NCBI RefSeq assembly: GCF_009914755.1
Contig: NC_060938.1
DNA length: 64,000 bases
Source of the DNA: the human T2T-CHM13v2.0 reference genome, Homo sapiens
Strand: one strand, 5' to 3'
Each line of letters opens with the position of its first letter. Position 1 is the stretch's first letter. The translations under genes and the position numbers were made by a program. Shown here in pieces: positions 11,325-28,500 of this stretch. Below the pieces are notes generated by a model, which was given only the letters and a program-made list of their open reading frames with translations, ran no database searches and was not told the origin of the DNA.

Positions 11325-14300
11325 TGGGGGCCGAGGCAGGTGGATCACCTGAAGTCAGGACAGAGTGAGACCCCTGAAGTCAGGAGTTCGAGACCAGTCT
11401 GGCCAACATGGTGAAACCCCGTCTCTACTAAAAATACAAAAATTAGCCAGGCATGGTGGCGGCACGCCTGTAATTCCAGTTACTCGGAAGGCTAAGGCAG
11501 GAGAATTGCTTGAATCTGGGAGGCGGAGGTTGCAGTGAGCCAAGATCACACCACTGCACTCCTGCATTTTAATTTCTCTGTGATGAAAACCTTAATGATG
11601 CACCAATCCAAAAATATTAGTGTCTCTTTCAAATATATTGAAGGGAGCTTTCTTGTGTCTAGAATCCATATATGCCATATAAAAAGTAAGAAATCAGCAA
11701 GCCTGATTTCAGGGTTTCAGACTACAGACTATAGCAATTTTCTAATTAGAGGATCCTATAGGTACTGATGCACCAATTGTGGCAAGAAGTCAGAAAAGTG
11801 ACCATAGATTTGCTAGTTTTTCTATTTGAATAGCAGAATAAACTCAAGGAACCTATGATTAATACCTTAAGAACATTTTTAAAGTTCAATAATTAATCTG
11901 TTTTCCAGGTTAATAGTCTTGTTTTTTTTTTTTTTTTGAGACGGAGTCTCGCTCTGTCACCTAGGCTGGAGTGCAGTGGTGCGATCTCGGCTCACTGCAA
12001 GCTCTGCCTCTCGGGTTCACACCATTCTCCTGCCTCAGCCTCCTGAGTAGCTGGGACTTCAGGTGCCCGCTACCACACCCAGCTAATTTTTTTTTTTTTT
12101 TTTTGCATTTTTAGTAGAGACGGGGTTTCACTGTGTTAGCCAGGATGGTCTCAATCTCCTGACCTCGTGATCTGCCCGCCTCGGCCTCCCAAAGTGCTGG
12201 GATTACAGGAGTGAGCCACCACACCCGGCAATATTCTTGTTTTTTTTTTCTGAGGTGGAGTCTCACTCTGTCATGCATGCTGGAGTGCAGTGGCACCATC
12301 TTGGCTCACTGCAACCTCTGCCTCCTGGGTTCAAGCGATTCTCCTGCCTCAGCCTTCTGAGTACCTGGGACTACAGGCACCCACCACCACGCCAGGCTAA
12401 TTTTTGTACTTTTAGTAGAGATGGAGTTTCACCATATTGGCCAGACTGGTCTCGAACTCCTGACCCTGTGATCCACCCATCTCAGCGTCCCAAAGTGCTG
12501 GAATTTAGGTGTGAGCCACCGTGCCCAGCCAATATTCTTATATCCATTTAATATTCATTTATAAGCCTTAGTTAATTCCCATTAGTTTGTAATAGGATAG
12601 CAATATGATGTTATTTCACAGAAAAAAAACTGAGGCAGAAAAGAACAAGTACAGGCTGGGCGCAGTGGCTCACACCCACATCCTAGCACTTTGGGAGACT
12701 GAGGCAGACGGATCACTTGAGGTTAGGAGTTTGAGACCAGGCTAGCCAACATGGTGAAATCCCATCTCTACTAAAAATACAAAAATTAGTCGAACATGGT
12801 GGCACGTGCCTGTAATCCCAGTTACCCATACCCAGGAGGCTGAGGCAGGAGAATCGCTGGAACCTGGCAGGCGGAGGCTGCAGTGAGCCAAGATTGCACT
12901 GTTGCACTCCTGCCTGGGCGACAGAGCAAGACTCCTCTCAAAAAAAAAAAAAAAAAAGAAGTATAAAGGCCCACTGAGAATTGGTATTTTATTGTATCCC
13001 TCACTGCTAAGGAAATGTTGGATCATGAAATCATTTTATCTGTCAAAAATTAGACACGCTGGGTGTCACAGCTCATGCCTGTAATCCCAGCACTTTGGGA
13101 GGCTGAGGTGGGCAGATCACTTGAGGTCAGGAGTTCCAGACCAGCCTGGCCAACATGGTGGAACACTGTCTCTACTAAAAATACAAAAAATTAGCCAGCC
13201 ATGGTGGCACACACCTGTAATCCCAGCTAGTTGGAAGGCTGAGGTGGGAGAATTGCTTGAACCTGGGATGTGGCGGTTGCAGTGAGCTGAGATCGCACCA
13301 CTGCACTCCAGCCTGTGTGAGAGAGCGAGACCCTGTCTCCAAAAAAAAAAAAAAAAAATTAGATACTATGTTTTCCAAAATCAGACAAGGTTTGTTTTCA
13401 TTTTATAAACAGCACTTTTCCTTATACTCTATAAGGAGATTATACTCCTTATAGTTGTTTGAGGAGTAGTTTTTAAAAAGTTTAACATGAAAACATTTCT
13501 CACCTACTAATCTCTTTTCATATCTTGCTGGATATATTTTAATGACAAATTTCTTGCTTGATAAAATAACATACCTGGTCTGTTTTGCCTTATTAATATT
13601 CAAAAGCATTATTCATAGCATCAGCATTTTGCAGAAGTAAATCTGGTGTACAGATGTCTGCATGAAGCACCTAAAGAAGAATGAATTCACAGACAAGAAC
13701 AAGGATACAATAGCATACAAGCACATAAGAAGTATCTATTGGTTCACTGATGTTGTGAAACAACATGACAGGTTAACACTTCTAAAAATTGGAGAAAAAG
13801 CAGTATAATACTACCACTTATGGGAGTAGTATTATATAAGATGCTTATTATCTAGTAAAACCCATGAACCTGTCAATATTTCTTTTAGAAGCAATTATTC
13901 ACTTAGTCATAATTATGCTCTTTGACTTCCAGTTCAGTTTTTCCCGCTATAATTATAACACTAGTTGTAAGAGTCAAAGGACCTAAGTTCAAATTCTGGC
14001 TCCATCACCAACTAGGTTTATACTGTTAGGTAATCAGTTTCTTCATAAATAAAATGAAAGAATATGTTCTAATTCACAGAATCAAATAGGACCATAAAAA
14101 CATTTTTTAAATGGGTTATAAAAAATTATAAAATGTTAATATATGGTAACTGGTCTTGTTTGGCTTTTCATCTAAAAATCACTTAGGTCAGGCGCAGTGG
14201 CTCACACCTTTAATCCCAGCACTTTGGGAGGCCGAGGCGGGTGGATCACCTGAGGTCGGGAGTTTGAGACCAGCCTAACCAACATGGAGAAACCCCATCT

Positions 14301-25567: not shown

Positions 25568-28500
25568 TTTTTTTCTGAGATGTCTCACTTTGTTATCTCA
25601 CTTTGTTGCCCAGAATGGAGCACCAGTGGCAAGATCTTGGCTCACTGCAACCTCCGCCTCCCACGTTCAAGCAATCTTCCCACCTTAGCCTCCCATGTAG
25701 CTGGGACTACAGGCGTGTGCCACACCACACCCGGCTAATTTTTGTATTTTTATTAGAGATGGGGTCTTGCCATTTTGGCCAGGCTGGTCTCAAACTACTG
25801 ACCTCAGGTGATCCACCTACCTCAGCCTCCCAAAGTTATTAATAACTTTTTAGTGTTTCTTCTATTATTGTCCAAATCCTTTTCGTTCTGTGAATTTTAA
25901 CTACCTCAAATGGAAACTAGAAGTATTATTGAGAAATAGGATCTTTTTTTTTTTTGAGACGGAGTCTTGCTGTGTCGCCCAGGCTGCAGTGCAGTGGTGT
26001 GATCTTGGCTCACTGCAACCTCCGCCTCCCGGGTTCATGCCACTCTCCTGCCTCAGCCTCCCGAGCAGCTGGGACTACAGGCACCCACCACCATGCCCAG
26101 CTAATTTTTTATATTTTTAGTAGAGACGGGGTTTCACCGTGTTAGCCAGGATGGTCTCGATCTCCTGACCTCGTGATCCACCCGCCTCGGCCTCCCAAAG
26201 TGCTGGGATTACAGGCTTGAGCCACCGCGCCCGGCCTGAGAAATAGGATCTTAAACTAATAAATCAGAGAAGTTTAATCTCAAATTATAATACAGATACA
26301 ATATATCTGTTTAGCAACATATTCCAAATTTGGTATTTAATCTTTGATAATGATATCATCTAAGATCAGTAATATAAGCCACAAGATTATTTACCCAGAG
26401 GGGTAGCCCACTCTATGTAATAATCCTAAATGTAAGTGAGCAGGGAAATACATGTCTAAAGCAACATGACTAGACAAATCTACCCAGCCTGAACAAAGAC
26501 AGAAGGCTTTCTGTCACTGGAGAAGTTCTCTAATATGGATTGGGATGCTTCACTGGGTCAAATTATAGCCTGAATGAACGATTTCTCAAGATTATCTATC
26601 TCTGTCTTCTGCGTCCATGCCTGCCCAATAATATCTCATCACTATCTGATTTCTTAAGGAGATTTTTTTTTTTTTAGACAGTCTTGCTCTGTCACCCAGG
26701 CTGGAGTGCAGTGGTGCGATCTCAGCTCACTGCACCCTCCACCTCCTAGGTTCAAGCGATTCTCATGCCTCAGCCTCATGAGTAGCTGGGATTACAGGTG
26801 TGCGCCACCACACCCTGCTATTTTCTGTATTTTTAGTACAGACGGGGTTTTGCCATGTTGGTCAGGCTGGTCTCGAGCTCCTGGGCTGAAGAGATCCACC
26901 CATCTCGGCCTCCCAAGTGCTGGGATTACAGGCCTGAGCCACTGTGCCCAGCCAGATGTTTTTCTTTTAAGTGACTGGGTCTCCTGTTGTCCAGGCTGGA
27001 GTGCAGTGGCTATACACAGGCCCAATCATACTGCACTGCAGCCCTGAACTCCTGGTTTTAAGCAATCCTTCCACCTCAGCCTCCCAAGTAGCTGGGACTA
27101 CAGGTACACACCACCATGCCCAGCTCAAGTAGATGTTTTTATGGGGAGAACATTTCAGCCTCCTTGGAAATTATAGTTCTCATTGTAAATCAATCAGTGT
27201 ATAGTTTACCAATCTCTGTTCAATATGTAGAGTATGAGTCAGTTCCTTTGTATTGTCACCTCTGTTTAGTTTCTGAACCTGCAGAGTTGCCTCTGATTAC
27301 ATAGTTTCTAGATGTGAAAAACATCTCACTGCCTTACTTGACTAGGGAAAAAAAACTGTGAAAAACAGTTTCTAAGCTGGGCATGGTAGCTCATGCCTGT
27401 AATCCCAGCACTTTGGGATGCTGAGGCAGGCGGATCACTTGAGGTCAGGAGTTCGAGACCAGCCTGGCCAACATGGTGAAACCCCGTCTCAACCAAAAAT
27501 ACAAAAAAATTAGCTAGGTGTGGTGGCGGGTGCCTGTAATCCCAGCTACTTGGGAGGCTGAGGCACAATTGCTTGAACCCAGGAGACAGAGGCTGCAGTG
27601 AGCTGAGATCGTGCCACTGCACTCCAGCCTGGGCGATAAAGCAAGACTCCGTTTCAAAAAACAAAACAAAACAAAACAAAGTTTCTAAATATATCCTGGG
27701 GGACATTAAGTGACCTATTCTCCTGAGATAATATTCGTTTACTCTCCCTAACTGCAGTATTTGGTAATAACCATGCCACAGGTTGGCCTTTTGCTTTCAG
27801 AAAACATTGAATAGCTTAGTCCAAACTTTGCATACTCATGACATGTAAGAAAAAATACACATAAAGTCATCAGATTTGCATACCTAAGTGCCTACCTAAA
27901 GTTGCTGTCTGGTGTGAGCTGCACATCATACAGTAGTTTCTGCTCATTTTTCCTTTCTCATATAATGAATCAATAAGTCTTCATCATAAAGGAATGCACC
28001 AAGGTGAACTGTGGGTTCCGGCTGCTGCTGCATCTGGTGGAGAGAAAAACATCAAAAGAAACAAAGTACAAAGAAGTATCTTTTTATTGCTAAATAAAGC
28101 AAAATGTCAGTGGTCTATATGCTAACATTCTGAGAGCAACAAAAAGGCACAGTAAGACATGTTTTGCTTATGCAAGTAACTGCTCTACTTTCGTTTTATT
28201 TCTGAGACCCTAGCAACTTTTTGACCTGGAATGATGCAAAACAAGCCATGAGAAATACATAAAACTCTAGTTGAAAGGAATCTCATAGATCATTTTGTTT
28301 ATCCTAAGTAGCATATTTCACAAATACTTACCAGAAACATTTCTTCAAAGAAATTATATTAGTTAATAATAGGGGAAAAAATTTAAACTAATACCAGGTC
28401 TTCTGAGTCCTACATGTCAGTGACTTACCATTAAAACATTTAACAAGTAATCTTTTCCCAGAGTGCAGTTTTCAAATAATAAAATGCTATTAAAACTTCA

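Follow-up and report, generated by a model that had tools for sequence, protein, structure and literature searches.

The histone H3 lysine 79 (H3K79) methyltransferases DOT1L and yeast Dot1p (PF08123) have a class I fold preceded by helices at the N-terminus. An Asn-Asn pair (NN) is a defining catalytic feature of DOT1, and the DOT1-specific loops located before motif I and near the C-terminus close over S-adenosylmethionine (SAM) and form the lysine channel. To our knowledge, no DOT1-fold methyltransferase other than DOT1L has been recognised in animals. PrmA and archaeal aKMT, respectively of the ribosomal protein L11 type and a broad-specificity protein lysine methyltransferase, also act on protein amines, and CmoA, the carboxy-SAM synthase of E. 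coli, binds SAM. Unitary pseudogenes that persist as long non-coding RNA (lncRNA) genes keep the old gene structure, the promoter and some splice sites with a destroyed coding frame, have intact orthologs in other mammals and lie in a genome without a functional paralogue. The same traits were found in SRP54-AS1, a lncRNA gene on the minus strand of the stretch analysed here (64,000 nucleotides of chromosome 14 (chr14) in the human T2T-CHM13v2.0 assembly, contig NC_060938.1, hereafter the window). The gene encompasses the remains of a methyltransferase gene, and what is new is a DOT1-like class I family with an N-terminal Cys/His module and an altered motif I, which in humans is seen only as a fossil.

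The 104-codon frame at 24170-24484 matched 51 proteins at E ≤ 0.01 among 5.8 billion (best 1.7e-24). A source name was available for 42 of the 51, all of them mammalian, with a typical length of 301 amino acids (aa) and the names 'uncharacterized protein', 'RIKEN cDNA 2700097O09 gene' or 'Methyltransferase type 11 domain-containing protein'. A tblastn search with P0031, the ortholog of mouse lemur, displayed five collinear exon blocks on the minus strand (E 8e-17 to 3e-6), which carried splice signals and extended across 28 kb with their order kept (Table 1). The five motif strings on which an earlier, sequence-only reading of the window had relied were all recovered on the minus strand where that reading had placed them, within these exon-like blocks bounded by splice signals. 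The homologs and Pfam Methyltransf_11 upheld its claim that a gene which once coded for a SAM methyltransferase of class I (seven-beta-strand) is fossilised in the window.

A six-frame search of the whole genome gave six matches, two to the chr14 relic and four to a disabled processed copy on chromosome 11 (chr11), which is disrupted by stops, frameshifts and repeat insertions. The chr14 exons and this retrocopy shared the same exon edges at 79-83% DNA identity (blastn), which allowed the lesions of the chr14 exons to be read. In the first coding exon, covered by the retrocopy at 41158-41206 (blastn, 79.6%), the orthologous start reads GTA AAA TTT, with no ATG, and one extra codon is present. 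In the CMMC exon the match to the ortholog was split into two high-scoring segment pairs (HSPs) that differ in frame (E 1.9e-16; 68% over 25 columns, 82% over 28); relative to the retrocopy, a 1-bp deletion between 27975 and 27974 shifts the frame of this exon. The motif-I exon matched the ortholog over 47 columns (72.3%, E 8e-17; 81.5% to the retrocopy by blastn), and the two bases preceding it are GG in place of the acceptor AG, so that its acceptor appears to have been lost. The LYGVE exon was likewise split between two frames, with HSPs of 77% over 22 columns and 80% over 20 (E 1.8e-9), and carries a 1-bp insertion relative to the retrocopy, the C at 22708. The strand-4 exon keeps its acceptor (ag/GTG) and donor (CAG/gtatgt); relative to the retrocopy it lacks 6 bp between 13617 and 13616 and a further 5 bp between 13597 and 13596, the second loss shifting the frame and bringing TAA TAA into it. 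The two stops after MNNAFEY are therefore not point nonsense changes but belong to an exon with these two deletions, the 6-bp one in frame.

None of the four lesions (1-bp deletion, C insertion, 6-bp deletion, 5-bp deletion) was found in the retrocopy alignment, so the parent gene was intact at these four sites when the retrocopy formed, and the retrocopy predates the lesions. The coding parts for residues ~34-73 and ~232-301 were found neither in the window nor in the 30 kb upstream, which take in the rest of SRP54-AS1 (tblastn; blastn with retrocopy DNA), and a permissive tblastn gave only chance-level matches for them in the window. Two candidates for these parts, 36214-36237 and 8157-8177, were rejected after every frame had been read. 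Both parts lost on chr14 are still preserved in the chr11 retrocopy.

The idea that these are chance strings in non-coding DNA that never belonged to a gene could appeal to the annotation of the locus as a lncRNA and to Pfam, which gave 0 families for each of four fossil exon translations because the pieces are too short. It has next to no probability given the exon-by-exon collinear matches to intact 301-aa orthologs (E to 8e-17 and 1.7e-24), the splice sites flanking the blocks and the spliced retrocopy of the same gene on chr11, and was already refuted by the homolog search, tblastn and the blastn with the retrocopy. The ancestral exon-intron structure is in place with disabling lesions, no functional paralogue was found, and orthologs are intact elsewhere. 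Judged by its sequence, the locus is a unitary pseudogene of the gene known as 2700097O09Rik in mouse and zgc:109986 in fish, which encodes a 301-aa protein. It may be listed in the 2010 catalogue of unitary pseudogenes (PMC2864566).

Table 1. Positions of the methyltransferase fossil, its motif strings and associated features (window coordinates unless a chromosome is named).
Feature	Position	Strand	Content or basis
tblastn block	41258-41157	minus	ortholog residues 1-33
tblastn block	28045-27894	minus	ortholog residues 70-120, two frames
tblastn block	24427-24287	minus	ortholog residues 114-160
tblastn block	22775-22652	minus	ortholog residues 158-198, two frames
tblastn block	13670-13596	minus	ortholog residues 198-224
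Fossil first coding exon, residues 1-33	41157..41258	minus	tblastn with P0031, 58.8% over 34 columns, E 3.1e-6
Fossil exon, residues ~74-120, with CMMC and H114 (CMMC exon)	27896..28033	minus	tblastn; acceptor and donor read
Fossil exon, residues ~120-160: FISH(S/Y)FS loop, helix, motif I (motif-I exon)	24287..24408	minus	tblastn, blastn
Fossil exon, residues ~161-197: post-motif-I LYGVE and next helix (LYGVE exon)	22655..22776	minus	tblastn; splice sites read
Fossil exon, residues ~198-231: VLHADI and strand-4 ADxMNNAFEY (strand-4 exon)	13577..13670	minus	tblastn, 74% over 27 columns
Motif string CMMC	27921-27932	minus	
Motif string VLVD	24320-24331	minus	
Motif string LYGVE	22725-22739	minus	
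Motif string VLHADI	13653-13670	minus	
Motif string MNNAFEY	13596-13616	minus	
Open read-through past the donor of the motif-I exon, GVLSSLQTSTFRKHFLLLATALPVTIQGDS...	24170..24286	minus	BLASTP of the 104-aa frame
Divergent promoter interval, 425 bp	41296..41720		annotation: SRP54-AS1 start 41295 (minus), SRP54 start 41721 (plus)
Processed intronless pseudogene of the same methyltransferase	chr11 67646925-67648039 (locus L010 ~268-2033)	minus	residues ~20-299

The ancestral gene encodes a SAM-dependent class I methyltransferase of ~301 aa that is distributed across Metazoa, and most other animals keep an intact copy. A family search among 1.84 billion cluster representatives gave 738 matches at E ≤ 1e-3 and 174 at E ≤ 1e-30. 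Named matches encompassed ticks, spiders, a horseshoe crab, crustaceans, insects, molluscs, an annelid, a brachiopod, a crinoid and a hemichordate among invertebrates, and fish ('zgc:109986'), frogs, squamates including lizards, a marsupial and placentals among vertebrates. Strepsirrhine primates harbored a member (Microcebus, Propithecus, Otolemur, Nycticebus). No anthropoid appeared among the 42 named matches of the 104-codon search, nor among the 120 matches listed of 1014, and the same database holds anthropoid proteomes, DOT1L being present for Homo, Pan, Macaca, Nomascus, Saimiri and Cebus. This distribution suggests a loss in the anthropoid or haplorhine stem, of which it is not proof because clusters at 90% identity can hide members.

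Three long homologs (P0114, P0126 and P0154) displayed a CobW_C, an M-phase phosphoprotein 6 (MPP6) or a PAP2 domain adjoining the methyltransferase. These may be merged gene models; across 15 longer homologs no fusion partner recurred (one CobW_C, one MPP6, one PAP2). Literature searches for 2700097O09Rik and zgc 109986 gave no functional or biochemical study of any member, and the family does not occur in the supplements of PMC3580494. In the portions of the literature covered, 2700097O09Rik appears only in lists and tables, with a mouse position on chr12. According to the available part of PMC4739719, homozygous 2700097O09Rik knockout mice exist, among 44 homozygous mutants.

Conservation was counted in a 58-sequence alignment, with the numbering of P0027. 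Intact orthologs harbored a SAM-binding set made of D149-x-G-S-R-x-G, G172-x-E174, D202 and the strand-4 block A-D-V-I-I-L-N-N-V-F-E-F-F, preceded by a conserved N-terminal module with E67, H83-x-D85, C108-x-x-C111 and H124-S125. Within the module E67, D85 and C108 were invariant (58 of 58), followed by C111 and S125 (57 each), H124 (56), S113 (53) and H83 (48); H114 was kept in 14. Motif I was kept at S152 (58), D149, G151, R153 and G155 (57 each), the post-I motif at G172 and E174 (58 each), and the acidic positions at D202 (46) and D214 (49). From strand 4 onward, P253 was found in 57 sequences, N220, F222, F225 and W235 in 56 each, and N219 in 43, with His in 12.

Several motifs of the fossil are better understood beside these intact sequences. 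The string read earlier as VLVD(I)SSR is there, but as a decayed motif I (VLVDISSRPS in the fossil, VLVDVGSRLG in orthologs), and LYGVE, placed 18 residues further on, starts 17 residues past the motif I Arg in intact orthologs, which is close. The human fossil codon for R153 lies within 24308-24319. Retention of the Cys-x-x-Cys (CxxC) pair (58/58 and 57/58) and of the NN-x-F block in intact orthologs agreed with what the fossil had led to expect. The downstream histidines fared unevenly, H124 being kept in 56 of 58 sequences but H114 in only 14. The DOT1L strings quoted for comparison (FVDLGSG, YGVE, VIFVNNFAF) were confirmed in the DOT1L exons of the same genome.

An AlphaFold2 model of P0027 on the 58-sequence alignment (predicted local distance difference test (pLDDT) 93.0, predicted template modelling score (pTM) 0.84) displayed N-terminal helices, a small beta module with the CxxC and then a seven-strand alpha/beta core, which in the model has the seven-stranded Rossmann-like fold of class I. 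By DSSP, in this model and in a second one of member P0179 (28% identical to P0027, pLDDT 94.8), the CxxC lies at a strand end and the following turn (strands 106-110/115-118 and 117-119/127-129), and H124 comes after the next strand, past the CxxC hairpin. H83 (48/58) or the invariant D85 could complete a putative metal site with C108, C111 and H124, and the module would fit a zinc knuckle. H124-S125 may instead, or also, be part of a SAM-capping loop: the distance from the I-S-H-S-x-S loop to motif I is similar to that of the Y-G-E-T-S loop of DOT1L, with nothing aligned by hhalign before residue 143. The DOT1 alignments extend over 263 residues of the model and leave about 70 of them unaligned, consistent with the Cys/His module being an insertion before the predicted core. 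A language-model search with residues 1-130 alone gave no usable match.

Solved DOT1-family structures were the nearest neighbours in three structure searches on the two models, by a margin of 2-3 Z. Foldseek against the PDB likewise placed DOT1L first (E 9.7e-9) and on 7 of the top 10 ranks, at template modelling (TM) scores of ~0.4, with COMT, SgvM and RsmD close behind. With P0179, the bacterial DOT1-like methyltransferase 9ne1 reached a Z of 15.9 and yeast Dot1 13.8, other structures scoring 13.6 and below. DOT1-family chains were aligned over 182-197 residues, against 143-176 for others, and the neighbour that came next was aKMT, an enzyme that likewise methylates protein lysines. In language-model features, which give leads only, the nearest named clusters beyond those of the family itself were DOT1 (PF08123; 0.89, 0.89, 0.88). 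Neither another fold nor another methyltransferase clade was favoured over DOT1 in the structure searches, which agrees with that part of the earlier proposal, and the modelled structures favour a placement with DOT1-type enzymes or, more broadly, protein-lysine methyltransferases.

Sequence-level comparisons gave a different picture. Methyltransf_11 (PF08241) was found above its cut-off of 21.2 bits in 3/3 mammalian orthologs (22.8, 22.0 and 27.0 bits) and matched 44 of the 58 members at E ≤ 1. The family profile was compared by hhalign with vertebrate DOT1L and nine E. coli class I enzymes as single sequences. CmoA ranked first (score 59.3, probability 95.3%, E 2.4e-8, 106 columns), PrmA second (52.4, 92.7%, E 4.3e-7, 75 columns, residues 141-219) and DOT1L third (41.5, 73.8%, E 2.9e-5, 107 columns, residues 143-254), ahead of PrmC, CmoB, UbiG, RsmG, RsmD, CheR and Pcm. 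In the DOT1L alignment N219-N220 fell on the NN, G-V-E174 on GVE, D149/G151/G155 on motif I, and the acidic residue before strand 4 was likewise in register. The same register was obtained when three single DOT1L exons were aligned with the family profile, none being significant alone (E 0.14, 0.047, 0.072). A profile search of PDB sequences gave yeast Dot1 the longest stretch (residues 142-290), and a search of PDB sequences with P0256 gave seven matches, none of them DOT1. Kinship with CheR (PF01739) was rejected, the mammalian orthologs scoring 23.1, 18.2 and 21.4 bits against a cut-off of 27 and E. coli CheR reaching a probability of 1.0% by hhalign; one of 11 other members reached 27.4 bits.

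The order 'motif I, GVE, D-hydrophobic, NN-aromatic', from which kinship with DOT1 had been deduced, is on the sequence evidence the universal class I order and does not serve as a DOT1 mark: it is non-specific because CmoA and PrmA outscore DOT1L and most members miss the Pfam DOT1 cut-off. The sequence-only reading was thus right in part, although the cue it used is not specific, the DOT1-related ancestor being backed by predicted structures nearest the DOT1 family but not singled out by sequence profiles.

Besides the shared fold and motifs there are differences from DOT1L and Dot1p. Identity is 13-16%, and the profile alignment leaves out the DOT1 'D1' loop region. The family places a CxxC/His module of ~50 residues before the core, whereas the DOT1L exon preceding motif I is without CxxC, and its protein, at 301 aa, is small and does not continue into a long C-terminal region. 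The bacterial enzyme 9ne1 is closer in format, being catalytic-domain-only and of similar size, at 12-14% identity. According to the part of a preprint available (10.64898/2026.01.11.698932), the Legionella DOT1-like enzyme LpDot1, whose motif I has the canonical glycines, methylates a non-histone protein lysine; minimal DOT1-fold enzymes therefore need not act on nucleosomes. That 9ne1 is LpDot1 was not confirmed, '9NE1' being absent from the preprint text available. PrmA outscores DOT1L by profile, but its alignment ends at strand 4, and PrmA and aKMT have no CxxC module and other N-terminal domains. CmoA shares a strand-4-end L-N and a non-glycine middle position of motif I (a Ser aligned at R153), but performs other chemistry and is without the N-terminal Cys/His module.

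Several results weigh against a DOT1-type assignment. Pfam DOT1 gave no match at E ≤ 10 in 3/3 mammalian orthologs, and its cut-off (23 bits) was passed by one of 11 other members (P0256, 26.5 bits), 6 of these 11 having weak matches at E ≤ 0.01. Over the alignment the DOT1 model matched 31 of 58 members at E ≤ 1, the same number as CheR, and it also 'rang' in 7 of 14 prokaryote control genomes. To the third rank of DOT1L by hhalign is added the profile search of PDB sequences, in which TrmM and PRMT1 (~8e-6) stood above yeast Dot1 (0.003) and human DOT1L was not among the best 60 matches. The lead in the structure searches is modest, 4er3, the chain that represents DOT1L, scored only 13.5 and 12.9, level with many enzymes, and the two models are not fully independent because most of the alignment is common to both. 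Motif I reads D-V-G-S-R-L-G, an Arg replacing the middle glycine in 57 of 58 sequences (R153, aligned with a DOT1L glycine by hhalign), and departs from the D-x-G-x-G-x-G of DOT1; by the alignment, R153 is an unusual, family-defining change. In the preprint, as far as its available text goes, a motif I Gly-to-Arg change inactivates LpDot1 and is used to inactivate DOT1L (10.64898/2026.01.11.698932). A four-ligand zinc site in the module is not assured because H83 is found in only 48 of 58 sequences and H114 in 14.

Many of these points would suit a class I methyltransferase that is not specially akin to DOT1 and has RNA or a small molecule as its substrate; its likeness to DOT1 would reduce to a Rossmann-like core and a helical N-terminal extension. 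The profiles that place CmoA and PrmA over DOT1L, the rank of TrmM and PRMT1 over Dot1, the level score of the representative DOT1L chain and the non-specific character of the sub-threshold Pfam DOT1 matches all speak for it. Set against them are the DOT1-family chains that came first, with the longest alignments, in three structure searches on two models, a next neighbour (aKMT) that methylates protein lysines, DOT1 as the nearest named language-model clusters, and the strand-4-end Asn-Asn that aligns with the NN of DOT1L. This account appears less likely than a DOT1-type enzyme, though its probability is appreciable.

R153 bears on another alternative, a SAM binder that is not a conventional methyltransferase, either a pseudo-enzyme or a protein with other SAM chemistry, as CmoA makes carboxy-SAM. 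CmoA was the best profile match of the 10 tested and, like the family, is without the middle glycine of motif I, which R153 replaces in nearly all members; a Gly-to-Arg change at motif I is reported to inactivate DOT1-type enzymes (10.64898/2026.01.11.698932, from the text available). However, CmoA-type structures were not among the best 50 listed in any of the three structure searches, the other SAM-contacting positions (D149, G151, G155, E174, D202) are kept as in active enzymes, and the pocket-like E67, D85, N220, F222, F225 and W235 are under strong purifying conservation across Metazoa. We consider a non-canonical SAM binder quite improbable.

The account we favour, as probable on balance and with real doubt attached, is a SAM-dependent DOT1-fold protein N-methyltransferase in which N219/N220 position the amine and the Cys/His module binds a metal or the substrate. 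By analogy with class I enzymes, motif I and E174 would bind SAM. At the strand-4 end, N219/N220 would act like the NN of DOT1 and place a protein amine, most likely that of a lysine, for N-methylation; specificity for lysine, taken alone, is held with less confidence than the account as a whole. The CxxC hairpin with H124 and either H83 or D85 would make up a small module, inserted ahead of the catalytic core, that binds a metal or recognises the substrate. The target would probably be a non-histone protein, and on the way to humans the gene would have ceased to be needed and decayed. More tentatively, the family may represent a second, unrecognised DOT1-fold lineage of animals, a compact lysine methyltransferase that combines a Cys-x-x-Cys/His metal knuckle with a motif-I arginine, acts on something other than a histone, conceivably a factor of translation or protein targeting, and was lost toward humans with its promoter and exons recycled as SRP54-AS1.

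With a metazoan-wide, strongly conserved relative of DOT1 that has a Cys/His module of its own, the field of protein methylation would gain an orphan enzyme. The enzyme being absent from human biology, phenotypes of mouse and zebrafish and marks that depend on it would lack a human counterpart, which matters when data from model organisms are carried over to people. Its role is directly testable, and mice with a homozygous knockout are already there.

This unitary pseudogene is still transcribed as SRP54-AS1, from a promoter shared head-to-head with the essential gene SRP54. Of the fossil exons, the annotated lncRNA retains the old first one (41153-41295) and the CMMC exon; it does not use the motif-I exon and skips three in total. 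The surviving exons, the lesions, the reuse of exons and the 425-bp spacing of the two starts therefore indicate a unitary pseudogene that persists as a transcript. Compared with other unitary-pseudogene lncRNAs SRP54-AS1 is not unusual; besides the skipped exons, two of its coding parts are undetectable. This gives it a simple origin, as what a coding gene left behind when it died, on a promoter that SRP54 keeps active. In the titles and abstracts of the SRP54-AS1 literature the topics are association, expression or clinical ones, and the locus is cited, as far as these sources show, in association studies of lupus and cardiovascular disease.

The sharing of a promoter with SRP54, seen in human, had also been taken to hint at a substrate in translation or protein targeting. 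It is no evidence of a functional link, and nothing beyond the shared promoter ties the enzyme to the signal recognition particle (SRP) or to translation. In E. coli K-12 (NC_000913.3 3602750-3604989, L018), rsmD, the gene of a 16S ribosomal RNA methyltransferase, lies head-to-head with the SRP receptor gene ftsY; its occurrence alongside the sharing of the SRP54 promoter is probably a coincidence.

Two further features of the transcribed locus were observed. The end of the first exon displays two tandem GTAAGT donors (window 41151-41160, minus strand), and the lncRNA exon, which ends at 41153, takes the second, which lies 5 nt further downstream than the donor that the coding alignment implies. 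The frame of the motif-I exon remains open beyond its donor, and the BLASTP alignments of the 104-aa frame with sea-lion P0005 (72% over 75 columns) and deer-mouse P0001 (341 aa; 70% over 84 columns) span this extension. The read-through peptide resembles a ~40-aa extension of predicted isoforms of sea lion and deer mouse, and may correspond to a conserved alternative donor or to a retained segment that would interrupt the fold.

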